The notes under the pieces are model-generated. The model was not told the origin of the DNA, ran no database searches, and was given only the letters and a program-made list of their open reading frames with translations. This document shows positions 1,928 through 49,451 of a stretch of DNA of 64,000 nt, one piece after another. Within the stretch, counting starts at the first letter, position 1, and the number at the start of each line of letters is the position of its first letter. The position numbers and the translations under genes are program-made. This DNA is from Candidatus Aenigmatarchaeota archaeon (GTDB lineage: Archaea > Aenigmatarchaeota > Aenigmatarchaeia > CG10238-14 > SCSR01): positions 219,281 to 283,280 of the forward strand of contig JAVZHQ010000001.1 of assembly GCA_038998335.1 (NCBI GenBank), read 5' to 3'.

Positions 1928-1934
1928 CTTTTTT

Positions 1935-11077: not shown

Positions 11078-11093
11078 AAATTTAGGTGATAAA

Positions 11094-12497: not shown

Positions 12498-12528
12498 GTT
12501 TAAAAGTTTTAAATTAAAATAAAAAAGC

Positions 12529-13788: not shown

Positions 13789-13819
13789 CATTTTAAATAT
13801 TAAATTACAAATTAAAAAT

Positions 13820-16269: not shown

Positions 16270-16325
16270 AAATTTTTCTTGTCTTTTTATTCTTAAATGT
16301 TTAGCTTTTTTATTTGGCTTTTGCC

Positions 16326-17395: not shown

Positions 17396-17437
17396 TAATT
17401 GATTTTATTTTTTTAAGTTTAAAATCGTTTTTTATTT

Positions 17438-18319
17438 TTGATGCCACTTTTTTCAGTAGTAACAACAGCAAAGAATGAAGAAAGAAAAACGATAGAAGAG
17501 GTTTTTCAAAACTGGGAGCTAACAAAAGAAATTTTTGAAAGAAAAACCGAGAAAAAAGTTGAGTTTATAGTTGTGGATGCGGGTAATAATTCAGAAATTC
17601 CAAAACTAAAAGATTCTTTTGTTGTTGGAGAAGAAATTTATCAAGATTATAGAAAATTTCTTTATTCTTCAGGTAAAATAAAATACAAATCTTGGGACTG
17701 CCCAAGCATAGGAAGAAATCTTGGTTTTAAATATTGCAAAGGAAATATAGTAGTTTTCCAAGATATAGACACTCTTTTCTCAACAGGCACTGAACTTGAT
17801 TTTAATTACATAAACCCAAATCTTGATAAGTATGAGAATTATTTTGAAGTTATGTATAAAGCTTTTAGAAAAAAATCGATAGTTGCAGCTTCGCCTTCTG
17901 CCAGAGCTTACGATGTTAAGAAAATTAGCAGAAGGTTTGGAATGATGGGGGAAAACTACATGGTTTGGTTGTCTTGTAAGCTACCAACCTTAAAAATAAG
18001 AAATAATTTTATTGGTGGACCAAGCATTCCTGGTTTTAGTATATCAGCTTTAAAAAATGTTTGTGATAAAATTTACGAAGAAAAAGGGTTTTTGTTCGAC
18101 CCTGAGTTAGCGATAGCAGAAGACCATAAGTTTTCTAGAATGTTAAGATTGTTTGGTAAAATTTCCTACGAGAGAAAAGCAGGGGTTTTCACAAGAACTG
18201 TTAAAAGAGTAACTCCAGGGTTTGATTTGTTAAAATCCCTTTTATACGCTGCAAAATGGTTTTTACCTTATTTTTGTCCAGATTTTTTTAAGTACCATAA
18301 ACATGTTTTATCTGTTTAG
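17438..18319 (+). CDS. glycosyltransferase family 2-like protein (tentative)
   Basis: N-terminal 'FSVVTTAKNEE...EFIVVDAGNNS' resembles the GT2 nucleotide-binding region. Confidence 0.4.
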   Translation: MMPLFSVVTTAKNEERKTIEEVFQNWELTKEIFERKTEKKVEFIVVDAGNNSEIPKLKDSFVVGEEIYQDYRKFLYSSGKIKYKSWDCPSIGRNLGFKYCKGNIVVFQDIDTLFSTGTELDFNYINPNLDKYENYFEVMYKAFRKKSIVAASPSARAYDVKKISRRFGMMGENYMVWLSCKLPTLKIRNNFIGGPSIPGFSISALKNVCDKIYEEKGFLFDPELAIAEDHKFSRMLRLFGKISYERKAGVFTRTVKRVTPGFDLLKSLLYAAKWFLPYFCPDFFKYHKHVLSV

Positions 18320-22193: not shown

Positions 22194-22211
22194 AAATAAA
22201 TTATTAGAAAG

Positions 22212-22297
22212 CCCTGGTAGCTCAGTTGGTTAGAGCGCATAGTTTAGCGTAAGCTTGGTAAGCATGAGGTCCCGGGTTCAAGTCCCGGCCAGGGCTT
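22212..22297 (+). tRNA. tRNA-Thr (anticodon GGU) with a 12-nt intron inside the anticodon stem (22242-22253)
   Basis: Acceptor gccctgg/ccagggc, D-arm gctc-agttggtta-gagc, T-arm ccggg-ttcaagt-cccgg; removing agtttagcgtaa gives a perfect 5-bp anticodon stem catgc/gcatg with loop ttGGTaa. Confidence 0.6.
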
Positions 22298-29200: not shown

Positions 29201-29753
29201 GCCTAAACCCTTGTTTTGCTCTGTAAAAAATGGCTCTAGGCTCATACAAGCTTGCAAAACATTCCTTAACAGCTTGCAAAAGCTCTTTATGTCCTTTAAC
29301 GTTTAAGAAAGAAGCTTGTTGGCCAGCAAAACTTGCTGTTGGCAAATCTTCAGCAGTAGCAGAACTCCTAACTGCAACCAAAGCTAAGTCTCTCCCAGAT
29401 TTTATTATTTCTAGTTCTTTTCCAACTTCGCTATAAGAAAGAGTTTCGTAAGCTTCTATAATTTCATTTTTAATAGTTGCAGGATACTCTTGTGAAAGAA
29501 TAAGCTCTTTTATTTTTTGGGAAGTCTCAAGAAGTTGAGTAGTATTGTCAACATCACACTCTTTTATCAAATTATCTATTAAATCTTTAATTTTGTTAAT
29601 TTCTATAAATTTTTCAAAGGCATTCGTTGTTATTACAAACCCTGGAGGAACAGGAAGTCCAAGCCTTGTCATTTCTCCTAGGTTTGCACCTTTACCTCCT
29701 GCTATACTTAAGGAATCTCTTGAAAGCTCATCAAGCCATTTGATATATTCCAT
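26223..29753 (-). CDS. ppsA: phosphoenolpyruvate synthase, intein-containing
   Basis: N-terminal ATP-grasp region, phospho-His motif 'ITDSGGQT|...|CHAAIVSRE' interrupted by 418 aa, C-terminal PEP-utilising domain; 1176 aa versus ~760-800 aa for intein-free PpsA. Confidence 0.9.
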   Translation of the reverse strand: MEYIKWLDELSRDSLSIAGGKGANLGEMTRLGLPVPPGFVITTNAFEKFIEINKIKDLIDNLIKECDVDNTTQLLETSQKIKELILSQEYPATIKNEIIEAYETLSYSEVGKELEIIKSGRDLALVAVRSSATAEDLPTASFAGQQASFLNVKGHKELLQAVKECFASLYEPRAIFYRAKQGFRHASIAVVIQKMVNSEKAGVMFTVNPATGEDKIVIEACWGLGETLVSGRVTPDIYIVSKDGKLLEKKIGLKEIMRVRDLATDKTEEIPVPRDKKGKQILTEEEIAKLAHYGVILENHYGKPQDIEFAIERNRIYIVQTRAITTIGKVEEIQVVGEPILKGLGVSPGIASGVVKIVLDLKDIDKVEKGDILVTTMTSPDLVPTMSKCSAIITDSGGQTCIAGDTLLLTPKGFVTAEELYEKVMNKEKVYILSFDCLRNQPIWRRIKRAFRRIAQTVEVSVSQTGKIKDNSIRITPDHKIFTYEKRELIKKELQEILSKKLAICVPFGLPDSECKISNEKLGYLVGSIFSDGYWKIFKGKTGLRRGCVIFTQKEEESKIEFITAVRDYFKEIFGYEFSQKEKITHTQIRGKEVTGTVSDYISYRLYPALILEKIYQHLASWCLLLDEATSLAFLAGVIDGDGTISKNRIQIYVSDKNLLRGIVITCLKLGIIPKITKNREICNVQIGEKVKEILEKCKRIKANFDERKKGSKFFAAKQVLEGLEDKANWKGKIKPYLNKNLLIDRNKIRERILPLLEGREKEEIERILNSSLSMLRVKEVGERFKTEVFNFEVDTEEEVNKNYVVFTKKYTPLLVSNCHAAIVSREMRIPCVVGTLAATKVLKDGQEVTVDAYRGLIYPGIIQVETPEIVAPEEEEEEIKPTITQIKVNLVFPEGVEEIAKKVDGVGLLRIEHMILKSGKHPAKLVREGRKEEYIQILLDGIRPIAKAFYPKPVWVRTLDARTDELRHLEGGETEPKEDNPMLGWHGIRRSLDEPEILKAEFEAIKTLHEEGLDNVHIMLPFIISVEEFRKAKEIALEVRLPKSCKLGIMVEVPSCALTIEEFCKEGIAFASIGSNDLTMLTLGVDRNNAKLLNLYSEMHPAVLRLIKETIKTCNRYNVESSICGEAPSNIPEMVEFLVECGISSISVNIDAIKKVREIVARTEKRILEDLRRRE
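27300..28553 (-). mobile_element. intein with LAGLIDADG homing-endonuclease domain inside ppsA
   Basis: Starts 'CIAGDTLLL' (Cys1), ends '...TPLLVSN' followed by extein Cys; LAGLIDADG blocks 'LGYLVGSIFSDGYW' and 'LAFLAGVIDGDGTI'; sits between T and CH of the conserved GG-x-TCHAAI active-site motif. Confidence 0.8.
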
Positions 29754-32110: not shown

Positions 32111-33346
32111 TTGAAAGAAAAAGTTTTTGAAATAGTAAAAAAACAAAACGAATGGAGAAGAAAAGAATGCATAAACTTGATAGCCTCAGAAAGTGTTTTA
32201 TCACCTTTAGCAGAGAAGTTTTTTGTTTCTGATTTTGAAGGAAGATATAATGAGCATTCAGGAAGAGAATGTCATTACCAAGGAACAAAATATTCTTACG
32301 AAATTGAAGAATTTTGCAACGAAATTTTTAGAAGAAAATTTAAAACAAAGTTCGCTGATGTTAGACCAATATCTGGAGGAATAGCCAATCTTGTAGCTTA
32401 TACTGCATTTTGTAAACCAGGAGACATAATAGCAAGTCTGGGAATTCAAAACGGAGCCCATGTAAGCTCAAGTCACTATGGCTTAGCAGGAGTGAGAGGT
32501 TTAAGAAGCGTTGAGATGTTTTTTGATGAAAAGAAAATGAATATAGATGTAGAAAAAAGTGTTGAACTAATAAAAAAAGTTAAGCCAAAGCTTATAATGT
32601 TAGGGGCTTCTATGATTCTCTTTCCCGAACCTGTAAAAGAGATAAGGGAAGAAATTAAAGATGTTAAGATAGTCTATGACGCTTCCCATGTTTTTGGTTT
32701 AATATATAATCAAGAGTTTCAAGACCCTTTAAAAGAAGGAGTAGACCTAATAACTTCTTCAACTCACAAAACTTTTCAAGGCCCTCAAGGTGGTTTGATA
32801 ATAGGAAGTAATAGCTTAAGTGAAGAAGAATGGGAAAAGGTTCAAACTGCAATTTTTCCAGGAATACTTTCTAACACTCATCTTCACAGATTTCCTGCTT
32901 TAGCTATTACTGCTTTAGAAATGAATGAGTTTGGGAAAGATTATGCAAAACAAGTAATAAAAAACGCAAAGGTTTTGGCAAGAGAGCTCTATAACCTTGG
33001 GTTTAAAGTTCTCTGTCCTGAGTTAGACTTTACAGAATCGCATCAAGTAATAGTTAACGTTAAAGAGCTTGGAGGAGGGAAAATAGTTGCTGAAAAACTG
33101 GAAAAAAGTAATATAATATGCAATAAGATTGCTCTACCTTCTGATTCTCCCCATGATGCAACAAAAAATCCTAGTGGAATAAGGCTTGGAGTTCAAGAGC
33201 TAACAAGGTTTGGGATGAAAGAAAGCGAGATGAAAATAGTCGCAGAATTTTTCAAAAAAGTTTTAATTGAAAATAAGAATGTGAGAGAGGAAGTTAAGGA
33301 ATTTAGGAAGAACTTCCATAAAATTTTTTACTGTTTTGAAGTTTAA
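32111..33346 (+). CDS. glyA: serine hydroxymethyltransferase
   Basis: 'NLIASES' near N-terminus and PLP-lysine motif 'SSTHKTFQGPQGG'; TTG start with 'ggagg' upstream. Confidence 0.85.
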   Translation: MKEKVFEIVKKQNEWRRKECINLIASESVLSPLAEKFFVSDFEGRYNEHSGRECHYQGTKYSYEIEEFCNEIFRRKFKTKFADVRPISGGIANLVAYTAFCKPGDIIASLGIQNGAHVSSSHYGLAGVRGLRSVEMFFDEKKMNIDVEKSVELIKKVKPKLIMLGASMILFPEPVKEIREEIKDVKIVYDASHVFGLIYNQEFQDPLKEGVDLITSSTHKTFQGPQGGLIIGSNSLSEEEWEKVQTAIFPGILSNTHLHRFPALAITALEMNEFGKDYAKQVIKNAKVLARELYNLGFKVLCPELDFTESHQVIVNVKELGGGKIVAEKLEKSNIICNKIALPSDSPHDATKNPSGIRLGVQELTRFGMKESEMKIVAEFFKKVLIENKNVREEVKEFRKNFHKIFYCFEV

Positions 33347-34548
33347 ATCTCAAAAAATCTCGGCTTCTTCTTTTCTCTTTCTTCTATTAGTTTAATAACT
33401 TCTTTTATTTTTTTCTCGCTTTCCTCAACTTCTTTCCTGTTATTTCCTATACCACAACTATTGCCAACGCCTACAACAATTATCTTTCCCTTTTCCTTTG
33501 TTCTTGCAATTTCTTCTTCTACAAGTTTTAAAACTTTTTCTTTTGCAGCGAGAATTTCTTTTTTCATAGGCTGGATTGCTTCTTCTTCGCTCATTTTAAT
33601 CACTATTGTTGTTATCGGAATTCTTTTCTTTACTGCAATATTTTCTATGTACGCTTTATCTACCCCTATTCCTCCAATAGCTACTCCTATCCCTTCTGCT
33701 ACACTTCCTGTTTCTTCGCCTTCAAGCTTAAGAGCAGCGTCTATGGTTATTATCTTTGCTATTTTTTCTCTTTTTGTAACCTTTTCTACTGCTTTTCCTA
33801 GTTTTCCTAACCTTCCACCAGGACCTTTTGCTCTGATTATATAAACATCTTTTCCCTTTATCCTTCTTTTTGCAAGCAAGGTATCCTTTTCTATCTTAAT
33901 TAACCTACCATTTTCTACAAGGCTTGCCCCTATTAAATTTCCTATAGCATCACCTATAGGCCAGCCATTAGTTAAAGCTTCTGTACCATAGAGCAAAGCT
34001 TTTGAGACTCTTTCTATCAAGGGCATGTTAAACTGGAAAATCAAACCAAGCTGAAAGTTTTTTGTTTTCTTTATCAAACCTAAGTAGTGCTTAACAACTT
34101 TTGAAAGGAAGTTTAAACTCATTGCTCCCGATAGTCCCATTACCAAATTGGCTTTTGTTTCTGCGTCGCTTTGCGAAGCAATTTGATTAACAAAATAGTT
34201 AAGTCTTTCTTCTGCTAGGTTTGAAATGTGTTCGAATTTGCTTATTATTCCATAAGGATCTAGCTTCACAGGCTCTATGGTAAAGAATTCGAGAAAATGT
34301 CTTATACTTTCTTTCAATTCTTTTGAAGGTTTTTTTGTAATTTTTCTCATTATTATTTCTTCAGCTTTTGCAAGGTAAGAGTCGATAGCTCTTGCTATCT
34401 CTTCCATTCTCCAAACGATTTGAAAATAGTTCAGCCTTAAGTAAACTATAGGTAAAACTACAAAAATTAATATCAAGTAAATAATGCTCCAAATGTTAAC
34501 GTCTGGGTTAAAAATATCCATTTTTATCAATTTTATAAGTGTGTACAA
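33343..34548 (-). CDS. hypothetical membrane-anchored protein
   Basis: 401 aa; N-terminal TM segment, Gly-rich 'GVAIGGIGVD' segment. Confidence 0.3.
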   Translation of the reverse strand: MYTLIKLIKMDIFNPDVNIWSIIYLILIFVVLPIVYLRLNYFQIVWRMEEIARAIDSYLAKAEEIIMRKITKKPSKELKESIRHFLEFFTIEPVKLDPYGIISKFEHISNLAEERLNYFVNQIASQSDAETKANLVMGLSGAMSLNFLSKVVKHYLGLIKKTKNFQLGLIFQFNMPLIERVSKALLYGTEALTNGWPIGDAIGNLIGASLVENGRLIKIEKDTLLAKRRIKGKDVYIIRAKGPGGRLGKLGKAVEKVTKREKIAKIITIDAALKLEGEETGSVAEGIGVAIGGIGVDKAYIENIAVKKRIPITTIVIKMSEEEAIQPMKKEILAAKEKVLKLVEEEIARTKEKGKIIVVGVGNSCGIGNNRKEVEESEKKIKEVIKLIEEREKKKPRFFEI

Positions 34549-36135: not shown

Positions 36136-36491
36136 AGTTTAAAGAAAAGCCAGTAGTTTTTCTTAAACTTGATTAAGCAGTATTTTCCTTGAAGCTTCTT
36201 ACCTTTTACTCTAAAAACCATTTTTTTATCGTCTCTTTCCTCAAGAACATAAGTTCCTTTATCCCAAATCTCAACTTTTCCTGCCCCATACTGTCCTTCT
36301 GGAATTTCTCCTTCAAAATTAGCATACTCCAAATCATGATTTTCAACTTGAATTGCAAGTCTTTTAACGCCTTTTTCTTTTGGAGGTTCTTTTGGAACAG
36401 CCCAGCTTTTAAGCTTGCCTTCCATTTCAAGTCTTAAGTCATAATGCAAATGCCTAGCTTGATGTTTATGGATTACATAAATTTTTTCCAT
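36132..36491 (-). CDS. stand-alone LigD-type 3'-phosphoesterase domain protein
   Basis: 'YVIHKHQARHLHYDLRLE...LKSWAVPKEPP' matches the LigD phosphoesterase signature. Confidence 0.6.
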   Translation of the reverse strand: MEKIYVIHKHQARHLHYDLRLEMEGKLKSWAVPKEPPKEKGVKRLAIQVENHDLEYANFEGEIPEGQYGAGKVEIWDKGTYVLEERDDKKMVFRVKGKKLQGKYCLIKFKKNYWLFFKL

Positions 36492-36521
36492 ACTTATATT
36501 TTAGGAATAGAAAAATATGAT

Positions 36522-37145
36522 GTGGAGCAATTAGTTCAATTGATAGAAAAATTGAAAAAAAGCGAAGTAAGTAAATTAATTGAAACTAGGATTAAAGAAT
36601 TTGAAGAAAACAGAAAAAAGTCAAGCGAAGAAATTTTTAAAGAGCTTTGTTTTTGTATTTTAACTGCAAACTTTAACGCAGAAAAGAGCATAAGAATTCA
36701 GGAAGAAATTAGTAATGGATTTTTGTTTCTGGAAAAAGAAGATTTAGAAAAAAAGTTAAGGGAGCTTGGTCATAGGTTCCCAAAGGCAAGAGCTTATTAT
36801 ATAGTTGAAGCAAGGAAGTTTAAAGATAAGTTAAAAAAAATTATAGAAAGTTTGAAAGAGGAAGAGCTAAGAGAATGGTTAGTGGAAAACGTTAAAGGTT
36901 TAGGATATAAAGAGGCGAGCCATTTTTTAAGAAATATTGGTTATAAAAATTTTGCGATAATAGATTTCCACATTCTTGATGTTTTAAATAAATTTAAGCT
37001 TGTAAAAAAACCAAAAGTTATAACAAAGAAAAAATACTTAGAGATAGAGAGTTTGCTTAGAAAAATTGCTGAAGAGGCTAAGCTAACTTTAGCTGAACTT
37101 GACTTATACCTTTGGTACTTAGAAACAAGAAAAGTGTTAAAATAG
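36522..37145 (+). CDS. N-glycosylase/DNA lyase (archaeal Ogg-like, HhH-GPD)
   Basis: 'FKELCFCILTANFNAEKS' and HhH 'VKGLGYKEASHFLRNIGY'; track start 36444 overlaps the divergent LigD-PE start, so in-frame GTG 36522 proposed. Confidence 0.55.
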   Translation: MEQLVQLIEKLKKSEVSKLIETRIKEFEENRKKSSEEIFKELCFCILTANFNAEKSIRIQEEISNGFLFLEKEDLEKKLRELGHRFPKARAYYIVEARKFKDKLKKIIESLKEEELREWLVENVKGLGYKEASHFLRNIGYKNFAIIDFHILDVLNKFKLVKKPKVITKKKYLEIESLLRKIAEEAKLTLAELDLYLWYLETRKVLK

Positions 37146-37166
37146 TTTTAATAACTCAATCAAGGC

Positions 37167-38090
37167 TCAACTTTCTAACCTTAAACTTAAAATGTATCCG
37201 CTACCGTCGCAAACTCTTGTGTTAAATTCTGGGCAAGTTCTACAACTGCCAAAGCCAAGCTTATATTTATCAGCCAAGGTTCTTATTTTCTTCGTTATGT
37301 TATATCTGTATTCTGGCGAAGCATAATAGTATATGTATCTTCTATCTGGTTTGGTGAAGTATAGGCTTGCAATTTTATCTTTTATTTCTGGTAAAGCTTT
37401 TTCTATTCTTTCTTTATATCTCCAAACAATTCTCAATGTCCCAGAGGTAATCATTCTAACTCCAGCTTCTTTCACTTGCTTTATTAGTTCTTCCAATTCT
37501 TTTTCATCATCATTTAAATAAGGAACGATAGGGTCTATCCAGACAGTGGTGAGAAATTTTTTTGAAAGTTCTTTTAAAACTTCTAATCTTTTTTGTGGCG
37601 AAGGGGCGTAGGGCTCGATTTTTCTTGCTTTTTCTTTATCTAAAGTTGTTACGGTGACAGAAGCGATAAAATATTTTGATTTTTCTAAAACATCCAAATC
37701 TCTTAACATTAAACCAGGATTTTTTGTTTGGACATTTATGGGAAAATTGTTCTTAACAAGGATTTTTAAAATCTCTCTTGTTATTTGGTACTTTTCCTCT
37801 TCATAAGTATACGGGTCTACAATAGAAGAAAGGTAAACCAAACGTTTTGGTCTGTTTTTAACTTCCTTTTTAAGTGCTTCAACCAAACCTTCCCTAGGGA
37901 TCGCAACTTCTTTTTGTATACCTCGAGATAAGTCTTGGTATTTTTTTGATTTTTTATGAAAATCGGAGAAATATCTTCCATAACAATAAACACAACCTAT
38001 AGAACATCCGATGTAGGGGTTGATCGTATACTTAGGAGGACACGTACAAAGCAATTTTTGAGACGATTTGAAATCTCTTAATACTTGCAT
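37167..38090 (-). CDS. radical SAM protein (SplB-like)
   Basis: 'CSIGCVYC' = Cx3Cx2C radical SAM cluster motif near N-terminus; 307 aa. Confidence 0.55.
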   Translation of the reverse strand: MQVLRDFKSSQKLLCTCPPKYTINPYIGCSIGCVYCYGRYFSDFHKKSKKYQDLSRGIQKEVAIPREGLVEALKKEVKNRPKRLVYLSSIVDPYTYEEEKYQITREILKILVKNNFPINVQTKNPGLMLRDLDVLEKSKYFIASVTVTTLDKEKARKIEPYAPSPQKRLEVLKELSKKFLTTVWIDPIVPYLNDDEKELEELIKQVKEAGVRMITSGTLRIVWRYKERIEKALPEIKDKIASLYFTKPDRRYIYYYASPEYRYNITKKIRTLADKYKLGFGSCRTCPEFNTRVCDGSGYILSLRLES

Positions 38091-38101
38091 TATACCACAA
38101 G

Positions 38102-38686
38102 CTAATCTTTTAAGTAGTTCAAGTTAAGGAGGTATTCTCCTTTTTCCTTTATAAGATAGCCAAGCTTACTTAATGAAAACAAGCGTCTCAATATAGTAGA
38201 TTTCCTATAGGTTCCTTTTAACGGTGAAGGTATTTTTTGTATGAGTAATTCTGGTGTAATCTTTCCTTCTTCTGCAGCAACTTCCATTATCTTATACACT
38301 AGGTCGCAGTTAAAGTGTAAGGTGTGCGTTGGATACCTCTCAAGAAATTCTTTGAGTTTCTTTGAATGTTTAGCTACAAACTCATCCTTAGGTAGATCAA
38401 GCTTTTTTGAAATAATTTCGGCTGTATCATCAGGTATTGAGAGAAATTTATCGCAAGGAAGGTGTGGTTTGGTAATAAAAGGAAGGGAAGGAACAATGAA
38501 GCCTGCTTCAGTCAACTTCTTGCTCAAATATTTTAGCTCCTTTTCAGCTTCTCTTCTTTCCTTCTTTTTTTCTCTTAGCTGATTTTCTAGTGTATTTATT
38601 TCATTTTCAAGGATTTTATAAGCTTCTATTTTTTCTACAGCCTCGTCTATAAGCTTTTTGTATTCTTTCAATTTTTCAAGACTCAT
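38102..38686 (-). CDS. coiled-coil family A protein, paralog A1 (unknown function)
   Basis: N-terminal ~65 aa 'MSLEKLKEYKKLIDEAVEKIE...KKLTEAGF' shared with A2 and A3; C-terminus winged-helix-like. Confidence 0.4.
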   Translation of the reverse strand: MSLEKLKEYKKLIDEAVEKIEAYKILENEINTLENQLREKKKERREAEKELKYLSKKLTEAGFIVPSLPFITKPHLPCDKFLSIPDDTAEIISKKLDLPKDEFVAKHSKKLKEFLERYPTHTLHFNCDLVYKIMEVAAEEGKITPELLIQKIPSPLKGTYRKSTILRRLFSLSKLGYLIKEKGEYLLNLNYLKD

Positions 38687-38754
38687 AATATCTATGAAAT
38701 TAATCGAACAATTAAGGATTTAAATTTAATTTTTATAGAACTTTTAGGACTGTC

Positions 38755-41052
38755 ATGGCAGGGAAAAAAGAAAAATTCGAGAAATTAGTAGAGCTCTTGT
38801 TGGCAAACCCTAAAATCAAGTACCATGAAATACCTACAAACCTCCATTGGACTCTCCGAAAATCTTTTGGTGGAATTAACAACGCAAAAAGAGCTCTGAG
38901 GTTAGACGCTTACATCTCAAAAACTTATAGTTCAAAACTTCCAACCCCAGAGGAGGTAGATAAAAATTTTGCTGAACTAACAGAGAAGCTAGGAAGGCAT
39001 CCTACTTATGAGGAGTTTTACGAACATTTTCCTTCTTCCTATTACGTGATTAGAAAAGGCTTATATCCTAACGTTAAAAGTTGGAAAGAATACATTAGAA
39101 GTAAGGGTTACGAACCTTATGATAATAGAGGGGTGATTTCTGACGAGCAGATAATTGAGCTTATAGAAAGAGGATTGAGTGATGCTGAAATTGCAAGAAA
39201 ATTAGGAAGAATCACAAGAAAAGGTGTTGCCTACAGAAGAAAAAAATTAGGATACCCTCCTTTTTCAAGGAAAAAATTTACTGACGAACAATTGGAAGAG
39301 GCTATAAAGAAAAGTGGAAGTTATTCTGCAGCTGCAAGGCTTCTAGGAGTAAACTCTAGTAGTTTAGCTGAAAGAGCAAAGAAAAAAGGTATAGAATCGC
39401 CTTATATCAAAAGAGTTCATCCAATTAAAAAATTTTTAAAGGAACAAGGCCCTTCTTTAGGTTCTGAAATCATTGCTGCGGTTGGAAACTTTAACGTGGG
39501 AAGATGGGTCTTATACGAAGGTAAAGACGTATGCTCGTTTCGCATACCAGGATATAAAAGCAAATTATATTTTCTAAAAGGACAAGAAGAGGAAGCAAAA
39601 AAGAAGAAAATTTTTTATATAAACAAAAAAATTGAACCTCTTTTAGAGTTTATTAAAGCTAACCCAGACTGTACACGTACAAGAATAAGAAAAGAGGGGT
39701 TTGACAGTATTATTCGTTCATGCTTTGATGACTCTCTGGATAAGGCAAAGATAATTCAAAGGTGTATCCAGTTAGGCAGGAGGGATTTAGCCAATCAACT
39801 ATTACAACAAATTAAAAACTTAGACCTGAAAGATATGGAAACGTTAGTTTCTTTGTACCAAAATGAAGCGCAAAACCAAGAAGAGGATGTAAAAATTGAA
39901 TATATAGACGTTTTAAGAGAGCCTAGCACTGCAAGAATCTATACAGAATCTACAGAAACAGAAATTGGAGACATTTTACCAAAAAAGCATTTTAAAGGAA
40001 GAAGGGTTATAGTAAAAGGTTTGAAACAAGCTGAAATGCCTAAAGAAATACCAATTTTATTAAGACTGGAGAGAGCGAAGAATACAATAGATTCGTACTT
40101 TATTCATAAAAAAGAATTGGAAGGAAAGGAAGAATACCTAAGAGAAGGCTATAGAATAACAAGAGCTTATCAAAGTAGTTATAGATTATTACAAAACTTG
40201 TTGAATTTGGAAGAATTAGAAGGGAAAACAGTTTTAGACTTAGGATGCGGCTCAAATTCTCCTTTAATGCAAGTCTTAAAAGACAAAAAAATTAACGCCA
40301 ATGTTGTTGGGTTAGACAGCCACAAAAAATCTTTACAGATTTGTAAAGAAAAATTTTCTGAGAATGAATTTATTCAGGGTTTATATCCCTACACTCTTTT
40401 CAGCTTCAGAAGCAACAGTTTTGATTGGATTTTTGCGATAAATTGTTTGCATTACACAAATGAAAAATCTGAAATTTGTGCAACATTAATTGGTTTAGAT
40501 CAGTTACTGAAGAAAGGTGGAAGAATTGTAATAATCGAACCAAGGTCTCAATCTAAGATGAAATTCAATGCTGAATTGAAGAAAAACCTTAGTGAGATGG
40601 GTTATAATGTAGAAGAGTATAATAAATATATAAAGTGGCCAGGACCACAATACTCTCATCATCTAATTCTGGTAGGCGAAAAAATAAATGAGGTAGATAG
40701 GAGTCAGGAGTATAAAAAGGCTATTGCAGCAAGTTTGATTAAAACAAACAGGTTTGAGGAAGCTAAGAAGATTGTTGAAGATTTGGGATTAACGCTAAGT
40801 GACATAATTAAGGAGAAAGAGAAAGAAATGGTATGCATCAGAAAGCCAGAAATAAGAAAAGTTTACAAAGAACCTAAGAGAGTTTTCAGTTTTGAAGAAA
40901 ACCTTAAACTATATTCTCTGATAAAAATGGTTAAAACTACAAAGATATATTCGAGAGATTTAGCAGAAAAAATGTTTGATAAGATTTTCAATTATTATTT
41001 TCAAAAAACCGAAAAATTAAAAAAATTTCGTCCTTACGTTGGTTCAAGGTAA
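38755..41052 (+). CDS. HTH-repeat plus class I SAM-dependent methyltransferase protein, paralog B1 (unknown function)
   Basis: 765 aa; tandem HTH-like repeats ('LSDAEIARKLGRITRKGVAYRRKKLG', 'SGSYSAAARLLGVNSSSLAERAKKKG'); MTase motif I 'VLDLGCGSNSP', then 'VVGLDSH' and 'FDWIFAINCLHY'. Confidence 0.5.
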   Translation: MAGKKEKFEKLVELLLANPKIKYHEIPTNLHWTLRKSFGGINNAKRALRLDAYISKTYSSKLPTPEEVDKNFAELTEKLGRHPTYEEFYEHFPSSYYVIRKGLYPNVKSWKEYIRSKGYEPYDNRGVISDEQIIELIERGLSDAEIARKLGRITRKGVAYRRKKLGYPPFSRKKFTDEQLEEAIKKSGSYSAAARLLGVNSSSLAERAKKKGIESPYIKRVHPIKKFLKEQGPSLGSEIIAAVGNFNVGRWVLYEGKDVCSFRIPGYKSKLYFLKGQEEEAKKKKIFYINKKIEPLLEFIKANPDCTRTRIRKEGFDSIIRSCFDDSLDKAKIIQRCIQLGRRDLANQLLQQIKNLDLKDMETLVSLYQNEAQNQEEDVKIEYIDVLREPSTARIYTESTETEIGDILPKKHFKGRRVIVKGLKQAEMPKEIPILLRLERAKNTIDSYFIHKKELEGKEEYLREGYRITRAYQSSYRLLQNLLNLEELEGKTVLDLGCGSNSPLMQVLKDKKINANVVGLDSHKKSLQICKEKFSENEFIQGLYPYTLFSFRSNSFDWIFAINCLHYTNEKSEICATLIGLDQLLKKGGRIVIIEPRSQSKMKFNAELKKNLSEMGYNVEEYNKYIKWPGPQYSHHLILVGEKINEVDRSQEYKKAIAASLIKTNRFEEAKKIVEDLGLTLSDIIKEKEKEMVCIRKPEIRKVYKEPKRVFSFEENLKLYSLIKMVKTTKIYSRDLAEKMFDKIFNYYFQKTEKLKKFRPYVGSR

Positions 41053-41105
41053 AACTTTTTGGTAAAGCTTAAATTTTTTACTATTTTTAATAAGTTAAGA
41101 TAAAC

Positions 41106-41819
41106 ATGGCTCTCGAAAAATTAATAGAATACAAAAAAATGTTGGATCGAGCTATCGAACTTATCGAAACCTATCCTAAGCTTCAAGCAGAGGTGGAAAG
41201 TTTAAAAAAACAATTGAAAGAGAAAAAGAAAGCAAAGAAAGAAATAGAATTAGAACTTAAAGATTTGAACAAAAAGTTGGCAGAAGCAGGCTTTTCTGTT
41301 AAAATAGAAGAAATTATGAAGGAACCTGTTACACTTACACCTCCCAAAACAGTTGGAATACTTCAAACAATTACCAAAACAATTCTTGATTATAAAGCTG
41401 GAGAAATATTTCGTCGCAAAGACGTTTATGAAAAATTCCCACCAGAAATAAAAGAAAAATATCCTGACTACTTGAAAGTTGAAGGAAATATCGGAAAAAT
41501 ACTTAACAACTTAATCAAGAAAGGTGAGGTTATAAAAATTAGGTTTGGAACTTATAAAAGAGTTGGTAAGACAGAAGAAGTTGATAATCCAAGCCATTAT
41601 TCAGAACCTATAAATAAAGCATATAGTGTTATACTGACATATGAACCTGGTAAAAGGTTTACTTATAGAGATATCAGGGAAAAATTGTTACAGGATAGGG
41701 AGGTGCGTGAGTATAGAAAGGGTTTGTCTTTAAGAATAATTCAAGCACTTCAGTTAGCTGTTGATAGCGGAAAAGTTAGGAGAATTGGAAGAGACGTTTA
41801 CGAGAGGTTATCTAACTAA
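41106..41819 (+). CDS. coiled-coil family A protein, paralog A2 (unknown function)
   Basis: N-terminus 'MALEKLIEYKKMLDRAIELIE...KKLAEAGF' closely matches A1. Confidence 0.4.
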   Translation: MALEKLIEYKKMLDRAIELIETYPKLQAEVESLKKQLKEKKKAKKEIELELKDLNKKLAEAGFSVKIEEIMKEPVTLTPPKTVGILQTITKTILDYKAGEIFRRKDVYEKFPPEIKEKYPDYLKVEGNIGKILNNLIKKGEVIKIRFGTYKRVGKTEEVDNPSHYSEPINKAYSVILTYEPGKRFTYRDIREKLLQDREVREYRKGLSLRIIQALQLAVDSGKVRRIGRDVYERLSN

Positions 41820-41834
41820 TTGTTTAGAGTTAAA

Positions 41835-43715
41835 CTAATCTATTCGTAACCTAGGTAAGCTTTTTATATATTCTCTCAATTTTTGTTCATACTTTTCTTT
41901 TGCTTCTACATACTCCTTCTGTGCTTCCTCATAGATTTTTTGTGCTGAAAGACCTAAAAGTCTTGCCAGATTTCCTAAAGAGACAATTATTGTATCTGTA
42001 GGCCAACCTAAAAATCCATCTCTCCTTCTTATTTTCTCTTGTAAATCTAACATGATTTTGTGGGTTTTTTTCCATGAGATATAATGATTTGCAGCAAGAT
42101 TTTTTACTTCGTTCATAGAAATCATCCAAGGATATTTTCCTTCTTCTCTATATTCAAATAAGTCCATTATAAAATCTTTACATCTCTGATCTTCAGGATA
42201 TGTTTGAAGCCATTTTTTAAGTTTTGCTAGCAATTTCTTATGAGTTCTTACAAAAATTTTGGGTGGTTTGAACTTTGGTATTCTTATTTTCTTCTCAACA
42301 TCTATACCTTCTAATTCTTCTATTTTTTTGAAATAATCTTTTAAAGTATGGTTATAATTTTCCGCGATTTCATACGCACGAAGCAAATACATGGTTTTTT
42401 CCTCAGCATCACTTCTGTTTTTTGCAGCTTTAAGATAACTCATTCCAACCCCTTTTACATAAGAGTTAGTCTTATCAGTTTGAAGTGTTTTTTCAGCTAT
42501 TAACAGATAAAAATAGGAAGGTTTCAAACCAACCCAATCAACTTTTAGCCTTTTCTCATGAAGGTTGTAGCTTAGACTTTCTAAATATTGTTTGGTTTCT
42601 AAATGACTTACTTTTTGAGATCTTGGATGAACTATGAAAAATTTTCCCCCTTTTTTAAGGAGCTGGTGTAGACCAGCTAAAGTAGCATATTTCTCGATTC
42701 TGTTGTTAAAATGCATAGAACATACAGCAAAAATGTAATCAAATGCATTATCAACAAAAGGAAGGGTATAAGGAAAATTTGCTTGTAAGTAGTTTTGTTT
42801 AGGAAATGTTTCCTTACTAAGCTTGAGGAATTTTTGGCAATCGTCCAAACCAATTACTTCAGCTTTTATGCCCTTTTTCTCAATTACATCTATCAAGGGA
42901 GACTTACATCCACAACCCAAATCCAAGATTGTTTTTTCGTTCAATTCTTCCGGATTTATATAAGTCTCGAACAAATCAAGAAGAAGTTTATATTCTGACA
43001 TAATTGGCTTTGAATTTACTATAATTTCTGCTACTCTTATATCGATATTTTTTGCTTTATCATGAAATTCCAAACTATCTCTCACTTTTTTCATCCATCC
43101 AACTACTTTCATAATTTCTGCAGGACCTATAGAAACTTCACCAGCTTTTAGTGGTCTTAAAACATAAGATTTTGCCCTTCTTCTTCCAACTTCTCTCCAC
43201 GCTTCAACTTCTGCCTCCATGTCTTTTGTATAAGTGTAGTGTTTACGGAATATTCTATTAAAGCCTCTTTTTAACCTCTTTCTTTCATTTCTCTCAGGAA
43301 TTTTTTCGATAAGTTTATAGAAGTCAAAAATCATTTCGAGACCGTGAGCAGAAGGAAATCTAGGAATTTCTTGGTGTAAATAATTTGCTATTAAATCTCG
43401 AATTGGTTTAGCTATGTAGATAACAACCTCTTCTGGAACTTTTTCTGTTTTTGGAAATAGCACGTTTGTTATATCGTCAAGAGTAGAAAATTTTAAGTAT
43501 CGAAAAATAAGCTCAGAAATAAGAGTTTCTTGGTCTTCTTTCAGGTTTGACAAGTTAAGAACTTTCTTGCTATATCCCCTTACAATAGAAGGAAGATTAC
43601 TCCTTAAAACTGCATATATTTCTCTAACTTTTTCCTCGTCTCTGATTAAATGCTCTATCTCATCTTTATAGATTTTCATTATCGTTTTGGGAAGACTTTT
43701 CAATTCTTTTCGCAT
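41835..43715 (-). CDS. class I SAM-dependent methyltransferase protein, paralog B2 (unknown function)
   Basis: 626 aa; 'ILDLGCGCKSP', 'VIGLDD', 'FDYIFAVCSMHF', 'KKGGKFFIVHPRSQ' parallel B1 motif for motif. Confidence 0.5.
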   Translation of the reverse strand: MRKELKSLPKTIMKIYKDEIEHLIRDEEKVREIYAVLRSNLPSIVRGYSKKVLNLSNLKEDQETLISELIFRYLKFSTLDDITNVLFPKTEKVPEEVVIYIAKPIRDLIANYLHQEIPRFPSAHGLEMIFDFYKLIEKIPERNERKRLKRGFNRIFRKHYTYTKDMEAEVEAWREVGRRRAKSYVLRPLKAGEVSIGPAEIMKVVGWMKKVRDSLEFHDKAKNIDIRVAEIIVNSKPIMSEYKLLLDLFETYINPEELNEKTILDLGCGCKSPLIDVIEKKGIKAEVIGLDDCQKFLKLSKETFPKQNYLQANFPYTLPFVDNAFDYIFAVCSMHFNNRIEKYATLAGLHQLLKKGGKFFIVHPRSQKVSHLETKQYLESLSYNLHEKRLKVDWVGLKPSYFYLLIAEKTLQTDKTNSYVKGVGMSYLKAAKNRSDAEEKTMYLLRAYEIAENYNHTLKDYFKKIEELEGIDVEKKIRIPKFKPPKIFVRTHKKLLAKLKKWLQTYPEDQRCKDFIMDLFEYREEGKYPWMISMNEVKNLAANHYISWKKTHKIMLDLQEKIRRRDGFLGWPTDTIIVSLGNLARLLGLSAQKIYEEAQKEYVEAKEKYEQKLREYIKSLPRLRID

Positions 43716-43953
43716 GATCTCGAATAGTTATCGAATAATTAAAACTTTTAAGATTTACTGTAAAGAGAGCCTAAGATATCATTCAATTTTTTCAACGCAA
43801 AAACAAGGTTTCTATTTAAGGAAAACTTGGATAAAACTTCATCGTCACATTTTAACAAAAAATCAAGTAGTTGAGTTACGGGAATTTCGTACTTTCTTAA
43901 TATCTCAGTAATACTATATTTTTTAAGCTCTTCCTCTAAGTTTAGTTTAGGCT

Positions 43954-44769
43954 TTATGTTACTGGCAAAAAATAGCTCTCCCTAAATACATAAAATGTTT
44001 GAGAATCAGAAACTTCTGTTTGAATTTTACCCTCTTCTACTAAATCAACAAGTACTAAAAGACCACAACTTCTTAACATTTTTCTGCTCAACTTGTATGT
44101 TCGCGAAAAATCTAAAAGGCGTGATGCTAAATCCTTGTATTGGAATTTTTTGAGCTCTCTTGCATGAAATTCTATACTTTCTTTTAACTTTTTCATAAGT
44201 TCAATTTTTTTATCATCACTGAGCCATTCCGCTTTTTCCAAAAAGTCAGGAACATAAGGAAGCTTTTCACCTTTTGGAGAATAAATAGGATAATTATACA
44301 CATACTCTTTTCCTGGTTTTGGTGTTTTTAATTTTATGTAACGGATATGTCTCTTATCATACAATCCTTCACTAACAGCTTTTTCAAGAAAACTTGATAC
44401 TAGATTGCGTGTTTTGAGTGTATACGGTAAATTCAATTTTTTAATAATCGATTTTGGTGTGACACTTCTTCCTTCTCTTACTCTTTCTCCTGTTTTTGGG
44501 TCTAAACCCATTATTTCACTAGAAACTTCTATAACTCTTTCGTAAGTCAGTTCTTCTGGTTTAATGATTTTTGGTGCGATTTTTTCAAAAGTTATAGAAG
44601 GTAACGAAGAGACAGAAATAGAAAACCCAAACTTAAAAAGTTTCTTGTTTAACTCTTGGATTTCTTCCACGTTCTTTTCCAATTCTTTTTTGAGTTTTTC
44701 AAGTTTTTCAACTTTTTCTACAGCTTCAGAAATTAAGTCTCTTTGTTCCTTCAATTTTTCTATCGACAT
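43954..44769 (-). CDS. coiled-coil family A protein, paralog A3 (unknown function)
   Basis: Start moved to internal ATG 44769 ('MSIEKLKEQRDLISEAVEKVE...') which aligns with A1/A2; track N-terminal extension is hydrophobic and unsupported. Confidence 0.4.
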   Translation of the reverse strand: MSIEKLKEQRDLISEAVEKVEKLEKLKKELEKNVEEIQELNKKLFKFGFSISVSSLPSITFEKIAPKIIKPEELTYERVIEVSSEIMGLDPKTGERVREGRSVTPKSIIKKLNLPYTLKTRNLVSSFLEKAVSEGLYDKRHIRYIKLKTPKPGKEYVYNYPIYSPKGEKLPYVPDFLEKAEWLSDDKKIELMKKLKESIEFHARELKKFQYKDLASRLLDFSRTYKLSRKMLRSCGLLVLVDLVEEGKIQTEVSDSQTFYVFRESYFLPVT

Positions 44770-45015
44770 TTTTACCCATAATTTATTAAGCAGTAAAAAA
44801 TTTAAGATTATACCCACAAAAGTAACAAAGTTATAAGAAAAAAATTGTTTCCAAAAAAGAATACGAACAATGGTTAGGAAAACCTGGTGCAATGATAATC
44901 AAAGCACAAAAAGTTTTTGAAGCAAGCGGTGAGTAAAATTGCTTGGTAGAGGTAGTGTAACAATAAGAATCATGAAAAAGCATGTTACTAAATTGCTGGA
45001 ATAAGGGAATATAAA

Positions 45016-46092
45016 CTAAAATGGTCTTTGTTCCCTTCTCAAAGAAAACAAGCTAGCAAGATTCCCAACTTTTGTTAACAAATCATAATAAAATAGTTCT
45101 AAATCTTTTTCTGTAAGCTTCGCTCTTTGGTCTGCTTCTATAAGAACAGAAGGCATTCCATAGTTTGCATGTCCACTCAAAGCAAGCAAAACAGAAGAAA
45201 TAAAATTTGCAGTTTTTACACAATCTTTTTCTCCTAGAAAATCAACTCTAATTGGTCTATCAAACTCAGCAGTTTTTAGATAGAATGAAAATATTGAATT
45301 TGAAAATTCACCAAACTCTTTTAGAATAGGATGCTTTTCTGGTTCAGAAGAATAGTTGAAAACACAAGTTCTTTCGTTTAGTTTTAAAGCATAAGTTAAA
45401 AGATTGGAGTCTTTTGAGTTTTCAAGCAAAGGTTTAAACTCTATCAGTTCAGGATTAAGATTAGCTTTTTCCTTTATTATCTCACAAAATCTTGTTCCTC
45501 TTGAGTCCTCTATTACTCCAGCCAAAACGCAATTTTTTTCTCTAGCTTTTGAAAAGAGGTTTAAATAAGATTGAATCAAGTTTTCGTAAGTTGGAAAAAG
45601 TATCGAATCCTTTGCTGGTTTTTCTGTGTAATGAGGAATTATTGAACCATCTAGAAAAATTATGTCAGGTTTAAAATTTTCTATAACTTCAGAAGCTGTA
45701 GAAGTTTCAATTATTTGTCTTTCATAGTTTGAGTTCATCTCAAGCTCTATCTCATGTAAAGGTTCAAAAACTATTTTTGGGATAGGTGTTGGTAAAGCTT
45801 CAGGATAATATTCAACTTTTTCAAGCTTTCCTTTTGAGTAAAAGAATATAACTCCAATTGCTCTCAACAATATCAAATCCATGCCATGTAAAGAACGTTT
45901 TACTATTCCTCCATCTACACCAGCAATTTTTAAGCTTTCTAGGTTTGATTTTTCAACCTTAAAAATAGTTTTTTCCTCTATTCCAGAAGAAATAGAAATT
46001 TTTCTTAGAACTTCAGCAAGCCTTATTCTTTCTGATTCCATTTTTTCGATTTTCTTAGCAAGCTCTTCCGTTATCTTGAACAAATCTTCCAT
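45016..46092 (-). CDS. NurA-like nuclease domain protein (tentative)
   Basis: 358 aa; 'IAGVDGG' and 'IIFLDGSIIP' acidic motifs resemble the NurA RNase H-like fold; no HerA-like ATPase adjacent. Confidence 0.35.
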   Translation of the reverse strand: MEDLFKITEELAKKIEKMESERIRLAEVLRKISISSGIEEKTIFKVEKSNLESLKIAGVDGGIVKRSLHGMDLILLRAIGVIFFYSKGKLEKVEYYPEALPTPIPKIVFEPLHEIELEMNSNYERQIIETSTASEVIENFKPDIIFLDGSIIPHYTEKPAKDSILFPTYENLIQSYLNLFSKAREKNCVLAGVIEDSRGTRFCEIIKEKANLNPELIEFKPLLENSKDSNLLTYALKLNERTCVFNYSSEPEKHPILKEFGEFSNSIFSFYLKTAEFDRPIRVDFLGEKDCVKTANFISSVLLALSGHANYGMPSVLIEADQRAKLTEKDLELFYYDLLTKVGNLASLFSLRREQRPF

Positions 46093-46155
46093 CCATTTTT
46101 ATTTGGAATCAGAAGTAATAAAAAGTTTTTTAACTTACAAGAAGGAAAAAAGATT

Positions 46156-47408: not shown

Positions 47409-49088
47409 GTGATTAATTTCGAGAAAGAAAGATGGCTTGTAACAGCAGCCTTACCTTATGTGAACAATATCCCACATGTAGGTAACATAGTAGGTTCTCA
47501 TTTACCAGCAGATATTTTTGCAAGATTTCTAAGACTTTTTGGTTATGATGTTGTTTTTGTTGGTGGTACTGATGAGCATGGTTCACCAACAGAAGTTGCA
47601 GCTTTTAAAGCTGGGTTAAGCCCAAAGGATTTTTGCGACAAACTATACAAGGTTCATAAGCTTATATACGATTGGTTTGGTATAAGCTACGACAACTTTT
47701 CTAGAACTTCTAAAGAAATAAATCATAAGGTTACGACTGAGATTTTTTTAAGATTGTTTAAGAATGGGTTTATAATAAGAAAGAAACTTTTGCTTCCTTA
47801 TTGTGCGATAGATAAAAGATTTTTGCCTGACAGGTGGGTAGAAGGCACGTGCCCTTATTGTGGTTATAAGCCTGCAAGAGGCGATCAATGTGAATCTTGC
47901 ACTCGTTTGCTAGATCCTTCTGAACTTATAGAACCTTATTGTATAATTTGTAAAAACAAACCAGAAATAAAAGAGGTAGAGCATTTATTCTTAGACTTGC
48001 CGAAACTTGAAAAGCAGCTTGAAGAATGGATAAAAGAAAACAAACATTGGAAGCCTAACGTGAGAAATTTAGCTTTATCTTGGATAAAAGAAGGTTTGAA
48101 ACCAAGATGCATTTCAAGAGATTTAAAATGGGGGATTCAAATTCCTCTAGAAGGATTCAAGGATAAAGTTTTCTATTGCTGGTTTGATGCTCCTATTGGT
48201 TACATTTCTTCAACAGTTGAATGGGCTGAAAAGATTGGTAAACCAGAAGAATGGAGAAAGTATTGGCAGGAAAAAAGTTCAAAAATAGTTCATTTTATAG
48301 GAAAGGATAATATTGTTTTTCACACGATAATCTGGCCTGCTATTTTGATGGGGACTGGAGAGTTTAATCTTCCTTATCAAGTTGGTGGTTTAGAGTTCTT
48401 AAACTATGAAGGAGATAAGATTTCAAAAAGTAGAAACTGGGGAGTTTTTCTAGATGTTGAAAACGATAAGGTTATAGTAAAGGTTGGTGAAAAGAAAATA
48501 GATATTGAGCCTGATTATTTGAGGTTTTACTTAAGCTTGATAATGCCTGAGACAAAAGATTCAAACTTTGTTTGGAAGGAATTTGAAAAGAAGGTTAACG
48601 CTGAGCTTGTTGGTAATTTTGGGAATCTTGTTTTTAGAGTTTTGATTTTTGTTAGAAACAATTTTAATTCTACAGTTCCTGAGCCTGAAAAGCTGGGAAG
48701 AAAAGAGAATAACTTGATTAAAAAGATAACTGCTACAAAAAATTCTGTGAAAGAACTTGTTTTGCAACTTAAGTTTAGAGATGCCTTGAAAAAGATTTTA
48801 AGTTTGAGTAAGGCTGGTAACGCTTACTTCCAAAGCAAAAAGCCTTGGGAAAATCTTAAGGAAAACCCTGAAGATTGTAGAACAACCTTATTTGTTAGTG
48901 TGCATTTGGTTAAAGCTTTAGCTATACTTCTCGAGCCTTTTATTCCTTTCGCCTCTGAAAAAATTTGGTCTCAGCTTAACTTGGAAGGCTCAGTTCATAA
49001 GCAAGATTTTGATAGCTTAGATAAGCTTGATATCCAACCTGGACATAAAATTGGAAAAGTTGAGCCTTTGTTCAAGAAGTTTGAGTAA
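47409..49088 (+). CDS. metG: methionyl-tRNA synthetase (catalytic core)
   Basis: Class I motifs 'PYVNNIPHVGN' (HIGH-type) and 'KISKSRNWG' (KMSKS); Zn knuckles 'CPYCGY...CESC' and 'CIIC'. Confidence 0.9.
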   Translation: MINFEKERWLVTAALPYVNNIPHVGNIVGSHLPADIFARFLRLFGYDVVFVGGTDEHGSPTEVAAFKAGLSPKDFCDKLYKVHKLIYDWFGISYDNFSRTSKEINHKVTTEIFLRLFKNGFIIRKKLLLPYCAIDKRFLPDRWVEGTCPYCGYKPARGDQCESCTRLLDPSELIEPYCIICKNKPEIKEVEHLFLDLPKLEKQLEEWIKENKHWKPNVRNLALSWIKEGLKPRCISRDLKWGIQIPLEGFKDKVFYCWFDAPIGYISSTVEWAEKIGKPEEWRKYWQEKSSKIVHFIGKDNIVFHTIIWPAILMGTGEFNLPYQVGGLEFLNYEGDKISKSRNWGVFLDVENDKVIVKVGEKKIDIEPDYLRFYLSLIMPETKDSNFVWKEFEKKVNAELVGNFGNLVFRVLIFVRNNFNSTVPEPEKLGRKENNLIKKITATKNSVKELVLQLKFRDALKKILSLSKAGNAYFQSKKPWENLKENPEDCRTTLFVSVHLVKALAILLEPFIPFASEKIWSQLNLEGSVHKQDFDSLDKLDIQPGHKIGKVEPLFKKFE

Positions 49089-49121
49089 AGGATTTAAAAA
49101 TAGAACAAGAAATTAAATAGC

Positions 49122-49451
49122 ATGGCAGAAATATCTTTCGCTCAATTCAAAGAGCTTGACTTAAGAGTAGGGAAAGTTTTGGAAGCCGAGCAAATACCAA
49201 ACTCAAGGAATTTGATCAAGCTAATAGTCGATTTTGGAACAGAAAAAAGGCAAGCAGTTGCTGGGCTTGTGGGTTATTATAAGCCTGAAGAGCTTGTTGG
49301 AAACAAGTATGTTTTTATCCTTAACCTGGAGAGGAAAAAGTTTTTTGGAATAGAAAGTCAATGTATGATTCTTGCTGCAGAAGATGGTAAAGGAAATGTG
49401 GTTTTGATAAAGCCAGAAAAAGATATAGAAGAAGGAAGTAAGATAACTTAA
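49122..49451 (+). CDS. stand-alone tRNA-binding domain (Trbp111/MetRS C-terminal domain-like)
   Basis: 'LDLRVGKVLEAEQIPNS...LIKLIVDFG' OB-fold signature; separated from metG by three in-frame stops. Confidence 0.65.
   Translation: MAEISFAQFKELDLRVGKVLEAEQIPNSRNLIKLIVDFGTEKRQAVAGLVGYYKPEELVGNKYVFILNLERKKFFGIESQCMILAAEDGKGNVVLIKPEKDIEEGSKIT

Follow-up and report, generated by a model that had tools for sequence, protein, structure and literature searches.

Where it has been characterized, archaeal NurA is a metal-dependent nuclease that, as a ring-shaped dimer seated on the hexameric motor HerA, resects DNA ends. What, then, does a nurA gene do at a locus with no herA gene in the region? We examined such a locus in a 64,000-nucleotide stretch of chromosomal DNA (here called the window; ~32% G+C) from a Candidatus Aenigmatarchaeota archaeon. 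The host belongs to the DPANN archaea and is a small symbiont with a reduced genome. The gene under study is as follows:

45016 to 46092, minus strand: gene for a NurA-family nuclease of 358 amino acids (aa), an ATG-started open reading frame (ORF) that matches the Pfam NurA family

The initial annotation of this DNA had described the gene product as NurA-like and lacking a HerA neighbor, and had proposed either that the nuclease was repurposed in a module with two further genes, designated A3 and B2, or that it was a misassigned RNase H-like protein. Our analysis favors, with moderate confidence, a genuine NurA that processes DNA ends, that was separated from herA when their operon was split in Aenigmatarchaeota, and that probably still works with a HerA encoded elsewhere.

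Assignment of the window protein to the NurA family

The window protein matched PF09376 (NurA) with an E value of 5.8e-16 and a score of 59.2 bits (gathering cut-off, 21), covering profile positions 2 to 253 of 254, whereas NCBIfam and PADLOC models gave no match. A 100% identical protein is already in NCBI, with the three accessions MEM5793822.1, MEM5800242.1, and MFH7881806.1, as "DNA double-strand break repair nuclease NurA" from a Candidatus Aenigmatarchaeota metagenome-assembled genome (MAG). Two contigs, of 475,080 bp (GCA_038998295.1) and 938,630 bp, encode this identical NurA. The NurA annotation is therefore already public, and the clade to which the protein belongs is normally coupled to HerA, as described below.

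The archaeal NurAs of solved structure (2YGK; Thermococcus kodakarensis 9X1L-9X1P; Pyrococcus furiosus 3TAL) belong to the same Pfam family, but the window protein is only ~13 to 17% identical to them and has no plain profile link to them: in searches of PDB sequences with the window protein (phmmer) and with two family profiles, no solved NurA was reached. Because plain sequence searches miss the solved proteins, homology was argued from Pfam, from profile-profile alignment with hhalign, and from fold comparison. Aligned with five HerA-linked classical NurAs, which served as the reference, the family profile gave a probability of 97.3% (E = 1.7e-11, 247 columns), and those classical NurAs in turn match the Sulfolobus solfataricus, T. 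kodakarensis, and P. furiosus NurAs in the PDB at E values of 1e-39 to 1e-25. An AlphaFold monomer model built with 32 homologs (predicted local distance difference test [pLDDT], 89; predicted template modeling score [pTM], 0.87) found S. solfataricus NurA (2ygk) as its best Foldseek match (E = 6e-12), followed by the T. kodakarensis and P. furiosus NurAs. Bacterial NurA-like proteins (Deinococcus NurA, 7F6D; TdpB of TdpAB, 8WET; TM1739, 1ZUP), all of which are encoded with an ATPase of their own, were less similar in structure than archaeal NurA. The model also predicts a long N-terminal helix (residues 2 to 31) and C-terminal helices like those of the intertwined NurA dimer. The window NurA may form a toroidal homodimer that docks on a HerA hexamer.

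These comparisons bear directly on the proposal that the NurA annotation is wrong and the protein belongs instead to a different RNase H-like family, for instance one resembling Endonuclease V (EndoV) or Argonaute PIWI. The missing hmmsearch link between the family profile and the solved NurAs speaks for that proposal, as does the presence of EndoV and PIWI domains among the structural matches to the model. Neither, however, is the best structural or sequence match; the Pfam NurA score lies above the cut-off, the hhalign probability is as high as stated above, and members of the same clade are operonic with herA. We therefore regard a misassignment as highly improbable, and the description of the protein as NurA-like is borne out by profile, by profile-profile alignment, and by the top-ranking matches of its fold. 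Taken together, these sequence and model comparisons establish family membership and the predicted RNase H fold and identify the window protein as a true NurA ortholog.

An exhaustive search with the family profile recovered 529 representatives at the 50% clustering level (E <= 1e-3). The members among those listed are all single-domain proteins, with full-length sequences of ~320 to 420 aa and a few shorter fragments. For close homologs, the sources named among the listed matches were Aenigmatarchaeota or an unclassified archaeon, and more distant members were labeled Lokiarchaeia, Helarchaeota, Sifarchaeia, Kariarchaeaceae, Promethearchaeota, and Micrarchaeota, with every motif common to them. 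NurAs from Asgard and Micrarchaeota nurA-herA operons (loci L101 to L176) are 29 to 39% identical to the window NurA and of similar length (340 to 400 aa), and they have in common with it the motifs VDGG, ER..E, LLDGS, DSR, GER, FYLK..D.P.RVEF, P.VLIEAD.RA.L, and LRR.RRPF. They differ from it in that herA adjoins nurA; in addition, Lys occupies position 195 in 60 of 67 of them and Asp occupies position 148 in all. By sequence, the window protein is thus assigned to a NurA clade common to Asgard archaea, Micrarchaeota, and Aenigmatarchaeota.

Linkage of nurA to herA in the clade and in Aenigmatarchaeota

To what extent a nurA without herA departs from the norm of this clade was read from 80 metagenomic loci of the wider family (A2 profile scores, 355 to 430 bits), whose ORFs were searched with a HerA hidden Markov model (HMM). 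Outside Aenigmatarchaeota, herA lay directly 3' of nurA in 69 of the 72 loci with enough downstream sequence. The herA gene encodes ~500 aa; relative to the nurA stop, its start ranges from -80 to +1214 bp, nearly always falls between -80 and +124 bp, and in most cases lies no more than 25 bp away; the identity of the downstream neighbor as HerA was confirmed by PF01935 (E = 7.5e-28) and PF05872. The three exceptions belong to a single Helarchaeota-like lineage, and in one of the three HerA is 7 kb away. Judged from these loci, this is an ordinary HerA-coupled NurA clade with a tight nurA-herA operon as its norm, and like the solved archaeal NurAs, the window protein has clade orthologs encoded directly upstream of herA. 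The initial view that a lack of HerA linkage is unusual for NurA is thus well founded.

The window departs from this pattern. None of its large ORFs encodes HerA, the products being housekeeping enzymes; tblastn with Sulfolobus HerA as bait (the sequence matching PDB 4d2i_A) returned only noise from the 64 kb; and two HerA HMMs searched against all six frames, stop to stop, over the whole window gave no match better than E = 0.01. The lack of a HerA neighbor, as first noted from the letters alone, holds in all three surveys. Among the genes called within 10 kb of nurA, no Mre11- or Rad50-type Pfam family was listed, although no search specific to Mre11/Rad50 was made.

We compared the window (L001) with other Aenigmatarchaeota loci whose NurAs are 50 to 100% identical to that of the window (L002/L003, L004, L005, L006, L095, and L096), eight loci in all; flanks of 10 kb were available on both sides in five of the eight and were shorter on one or both sides in L003, L006, and L096. 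The loss of herA linkage is phylum-wide in Aenigmatarchaeota. In place of the operon, the loci have a constant setting: in all eight, a methionyl-tRNA synthetase (MetRS) gene lies close by and is transcribed divergently from nurA. The features of this side of the gene in the window are as follows:

47409 to 49088, plus strand: MetRS gene, the syntenic anchor, divergent from nurA
46093 to 46155, between divergent genes: intergenic region of 63 bp between the NurA and HAD-hydrolase genes, read from the sequence

An A/T-rich TATA-like element, CTTTTTATTA, stands ~25 to 35 nt 5' of the nurA ATG. With the element at this distance, nurA probably has its own (putative) promoter and a short or absent leader. 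At its 3' end, the ancestral convergent neighbor of nurA is a DNA glycosylase gene:

36468 to 37145, plus strand: Ogg-type DNA glycosylase gene

In L095 the nurA and Ogg stop codons are convergent and 5 bp apart, from which it follows that nurA is monocistronic. The window locus thus has a monocistronic nurA beside MetRS and no herA in the region. We conclude that nurA, which has more than 500 homologs, is a core gene of Aenigmatarchaeota, fixed beside MetRS.

A genome-collection scan with two narrow peptide patterns and a protein search showed that some MAGs labeled Aenigmatarchaeota do carry classical nurA-herA operons, with a 4-bp overlap between the genes (L067, L091/L092, and L093), and in L054, which bears the same label, HerA lies at the contig end. 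A canonical herA-nurA locus elsewhere is therefore present at the level of the phylum, in some of its MAGs. The NurAs of these operons belong to the same superfamily as the window protein but to a different clade, that of Sulfolobus and Thermococcus: they score 9 to 18 bits against the window family profile and match Sulfolobus NurA at E = 1e-39. In L091 (positions 6961 to 17479; GCA_038998635.1) and L092, the classical operon lies beside a type I restriction-modification system, a KwaB-like gene, and DUF2283, a context resembling a defense island that suggests an accessory or horizontally acquired operon.

Several other features of the surveyed loci were recorded. Among the Asgard-type loci L101 to L176, 39 have a CTP synthase gene whose end abuts the nurA start and 28 encode a DUF460 protein of 680 aa 3' of herA; Arf-family small GTPases and RIO kinase are also frequent neighbors of nurA-herA. 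Two Logan contigs of 24 to 25% G+C (L009, positions 1668 to 4334, and L010) carry a classical nurA-herA pair with cas1-cas2 on one side and a CRISPR-Cas operon of type III (Cas10/Csm) on the other. Their HerA is encoded in two pieces separated by ~300 bp, one with the HAS barrel and Walker A (239 aa) and one C-terminal (178 aa); L007 and L008, which stem from two independent samples, have HerA divided in a similar way (285 plus 199 aa). In the window, MetRS (559 aa) and a C-terminal tRNA-binding domain (Trbp111/EMAP-like, 109 aa) are encoded by two adjacent genes (47409 to 49451, plus strand), an arrangement found in most related Aenigmatarchaeota loci and absent within the L006 flank examined.

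Active-site residues and the question of a HerA partner

Residues of the window protein were mapped through two chained alignments, the first (hhalign) from the family to the classical NurAs and the second from the classical NurAs to the PDB, with the following result:

window D60 = Sulfolobus D58, catalytic
window E129 = Sulfolobus E116, catalytic
window D148 = Sulfolobus D133, catalytic
window E195 = Sulfolobus K202, conserved Lys in Sulfolobus
window D321 = Sulfolobus H306, last catalytic residue

In Sulfolobus NurA, D58, E116, and D133 are catalytic, K202 has been proposed to hold the phosphates on either side of the scissile bond, and nuclease activity was lost in a K202A mutant (Blackwood et al., PMC3326311). 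The window protein and archaeal NurA are alike in the equivalent catalytic Asp, Glu, and Asp and in a GxP segment before the last catalytic residue; they differ in that this last residue is Asp (D321) rather than His and in that the K202 equivalent is Glu. D60 and E129 are invariant across ~400 family members. By this alignment, the D-E-D-D set of metal-binding residues, predicted to be catalytic, is kept in the window NurA.

Positions 148 and 195 (codons at ~45649 to 45651 and ~45508 to 45510 of the window, respectively) were scored by aligning ~340 family members to the profile:

HerA-linked members (n = 67): position 148, Asp 67; position 195, Lys 60 and Glu 7
Aenigmatarchaeota clade (n = 120): position 148, Asp 53, Asn 39, and His 28; position 195, Glu 119

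The two positions vary together: Asn or His at 148 is paired with Glu195 in 80 of 81 sequences, and Lys195 is paired with Asp148 in 133 of 134. Asn and His at 148 are confined to the Aenigmatarchaeota clade that has no herA linkage, and the window NurA itself combines Glu195 with a retained Asp148. Family-wide, the Lys-to-Glu change at 195 is seen in roughly half of the NurA clade. Possibly, Glu195 takes over a metal-binding role and makes Asp148 dispensable.

Outside these two positions, the linked and unlinked clades do not differ in how invariant the conserved residues are. This applies also to the C-terminal tail R352-R353-x-x-R356-P357-F358 (LRREQRPF in the window protein), of which R352, R353, P357, and F358 are kept in HerA-linked and unlinked members alike. 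In the NurA-HerA complex of T. kodakarensis, the HAS domain of HerA is contacted by residues close to the C terminus of NurA (PMC12977600), so that the conserved tail lends weak support to continued use of a HerA partner.

How these observations bear on a partner can be stated as a sequence of events. The ancestral tight nurA-herA operon would have been broken in Aenigmatarchaeota; nurA would then have become a monocistronic core gene fixed beside MetRS and served by its own promoter; its function would most likely still be the processing of DNA ends or flaps in recombinational repair; and the partner HerA would probably be encoded in trans. The activity and substrate assumed for the window nuclease, like its trans-encoded HerA, are inferred. 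In Sulfolobus, the activity of NurA and that of HerA each depend on the other protein (PMC3326311).

Several findings weigh against this sequence of events. HerA was found in none of the eight Aenigmatarchaeota loci within the flanks examined (<=10 kb), as opposed to 69 of 72 loci elsewhere. Of the 120 HerA clusters that best matched an Aenigmatarchaeota HerA, none lay on the 938,630-bp or 475,080-bp contig carrying nurA. The HerAs of Aenigmatarchaeota were seen only paired with their own classical-type NurA. Furthermore, the window protein has Glu195 in place of the essential Lys of Sulfolobus NurA (K202), and Asn or His stands for the third catalytic Asp in 67 of the 120 sequences of the unlinked clade, although the window protein keeps Asp; this drift at D148 suggests changed or relaxed constraints.

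The same findings lead to the alternative that the protein is a HerA-independent NurA derivative, the motor having been lost in the reduced genome, and that it acts as a stand-alone nuclease with a remodeled, more acidic active site or, in members with Asn or His at 148, as a noncatalytic DNA-end-binding ring. We consider this alternative, with both of its variants taken jointly, possible but doubtful. In its favor are the difference in linkage just given and the fact that no clade-matched HerA was seen in any Aenigmatarchaeota sequence examined. In 119 of 120 sequences the essential Lys has given way to Glu; the variation at position 148 (Asp/Asn/His, 53/39/28) is restricted to the Aenigmatarchaeota clade, all 67 of 67 HerA-linked members having Asp; and Asn148 or His148 is hardly ever found without Glu195. 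We also count for it the report of De Falco et al. (2015, PMC4641729) that NurA by itself has endo- and exonuclease activity.

The Lys-to-Glu change, however, also occurs in seven loci with adjacent herA; it is therefore compatible with a HerA partnership and not tied to the motor's loss. Elsewhere the protein, the C-terminal tail included, is as conserved as in linked members, the window protein keeps all four acidic residues, and the absence of HerA covers the window, the locus flanks, and the best 120 HerA clusters. On balance, it appears rather unlikely that the Aenigmatarchaeota NurA as a whole has been freed from HerA to act alone, as a nuclease or a DNA-end-binding ring, with an active site rebuilt by Glu for Lys and with a dispensable third Asp. 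We retain as the preferred reading a NurA separated from its operon and working with a HerA encoded in trans.

A 7.9-kb insertion brings the A/B genes next to nurA

The remaining question is whether the genes downstream of nurA point to a different function. The initial annotation was correct that nurA is co-oriented with, and directly upstream of, B2 and A3: B2 lies at 43954 to 44769 and A3 at 41835 to 43715, with spacers of 246 bp (nurA to B2, taking the B2 start from the public record) and 238 bp (B2 to A3) that contain several oligo-T tracts. The relevant features are as follows:

37149 to 45017, no strand assigned: strain-specific insertion of ~7.9 kb relative to L095, delimited by blastn collinearity
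44770 to 45015, minus strand: spacer of 246 bp from the NurA stop to the B2 start, with at least five T5 to T7 runs on the transcribed strand
44802 to 44933, plus strand: methyltransferase pseudogene remnant, the last ~40 codons (tblastn, 73% over 44 aa, E = 8e-14)

By blastn, window positions 49929 to 45018 correspond to L095 positions 6169 to 11069, and window positions 37148 to 33002 to L095 positions 11073 to 15214, both at 80% identity. In L095, whose NurA is 80% identical, the nurA stop runs straight to the convergent Ogg gene, with no A/B genes. As the two sequences are collinear on both sides, the intervening 37149 to 45017, which holds all of the A/B genes, is an insertion. It carries genes for a radical-SAM/DUF1848 protein, a 194-aa B-like protein, A (765 aa), B (237 aa), A3 (626 aa), and B2 (271 aa). 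In L096, whose NurA is 89% identical, an intact 247-aa class I methyltransferase gene convergent with nurA occupies the insertion spot, and the collinearity of window and L096 DNA extends to 44827. We conclude that the insertion truncated the methyltransferase gene and left its 3' remnant in the NurA-B2 spacer. Five more distant relatives have no A/B genes beside nurA either, with other genes or SepF directly at that spot, so that A/B genes adjoin nurA in none of seven related loci. The 3' side of nurA is thus variable in content, and its present proximity to B2 and A3 is a recent accident without functional meaning.

The proposal that nurA was recruited into the A/B module (methyltransferase plus coiled-coil/winged helix-turn-helix proteins) and is cotranscribed with B2 and A3 draws on the shared strand, with B2 only 246 bp downstream, and on the A proteins, which weakly match a defense-system methyltransferase (PADLOC mad2), since defense systems often include nucleases. 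Against it stand the absence of the module from the relatives with 80%- and 89%-identical NurAs and from the five distant ones, the truncated methyltransferase remnant on the opposite strand inside the spacer, the oligo-T tracts after the nurA stop (T runs are terminator-like signals in archaea), and the conservation of NurA in hundreds of genomes without A/B genes. A repurposed nuclease in the A/B module is accordingly not upheld, and we regard such recruitment as scarcely credible.

As to the inserted genes themselves, the A-type proteins (765 and 626 aa) have central class I SAM methyltransferase domains that are 39% identical and give weak PADLOC "mad2" matches, and the B-type proteins (194, 237, and 271 aa) have an N-terminal coiled coil, the 194- and 237-aa proteins being 58% identical over their first 65 residues. 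No integrase was found in the insertion (37149 to 45017), a search for terminal repeats at its ends gave only AT-rich noise, and no relatives of A3 were found in viral contigs.

Three further features of the window were noted. A DUF1512 protein of ~400 aa (33343 to 34548, minus strand), not HerA by HMM, is a same-strand neighbor 1 to 7 kb from nurA in Aenigmatarchaeota and recurs in L002, L004, L005, and L095; in the window it is ~10.5 kb from nurA because of the insertion. A PEP synthase/pyruvate phosphate dikinase-type gene (26223 to 29753, minus strand; 1,176 aa) contains an intein with a LAGLIDADG homing-endonuclease domain, whereas its L095 ortholog, at only 757 aa, has no intein. At 22210 to 22297 (plus strand), ARAGORN called a tRNA whose anticodon, four bases long ("ttag"), it gave as undetermined; Rfam supports the tRNA call at 52 bits, and this tRNA possibly has an intron or an unusual anticodon loop.

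We found nothing usable in the literature on NurA or HerA in DPANN or Aenigmatarchaeota. The significance of these results is modest and is mainly for specialists in archaeal recombination. The A/B module is better viewed separately, as a 7.9-kb insertion, and its link to the nuclease is a false lead now removed. The Asgard/DPANN NurA clade is normally HerA-coupled despite having no profile link to the solved NurAs, and one whole phylum within it is uncoupled. If that phylum truly has no matching HerA, it would provide a natural test of whether NurA is able to act without its motor and would reveal the effect that the Lys-to-Glu and Asp-to-Asn/His changes have on an active site of the RNase H type.
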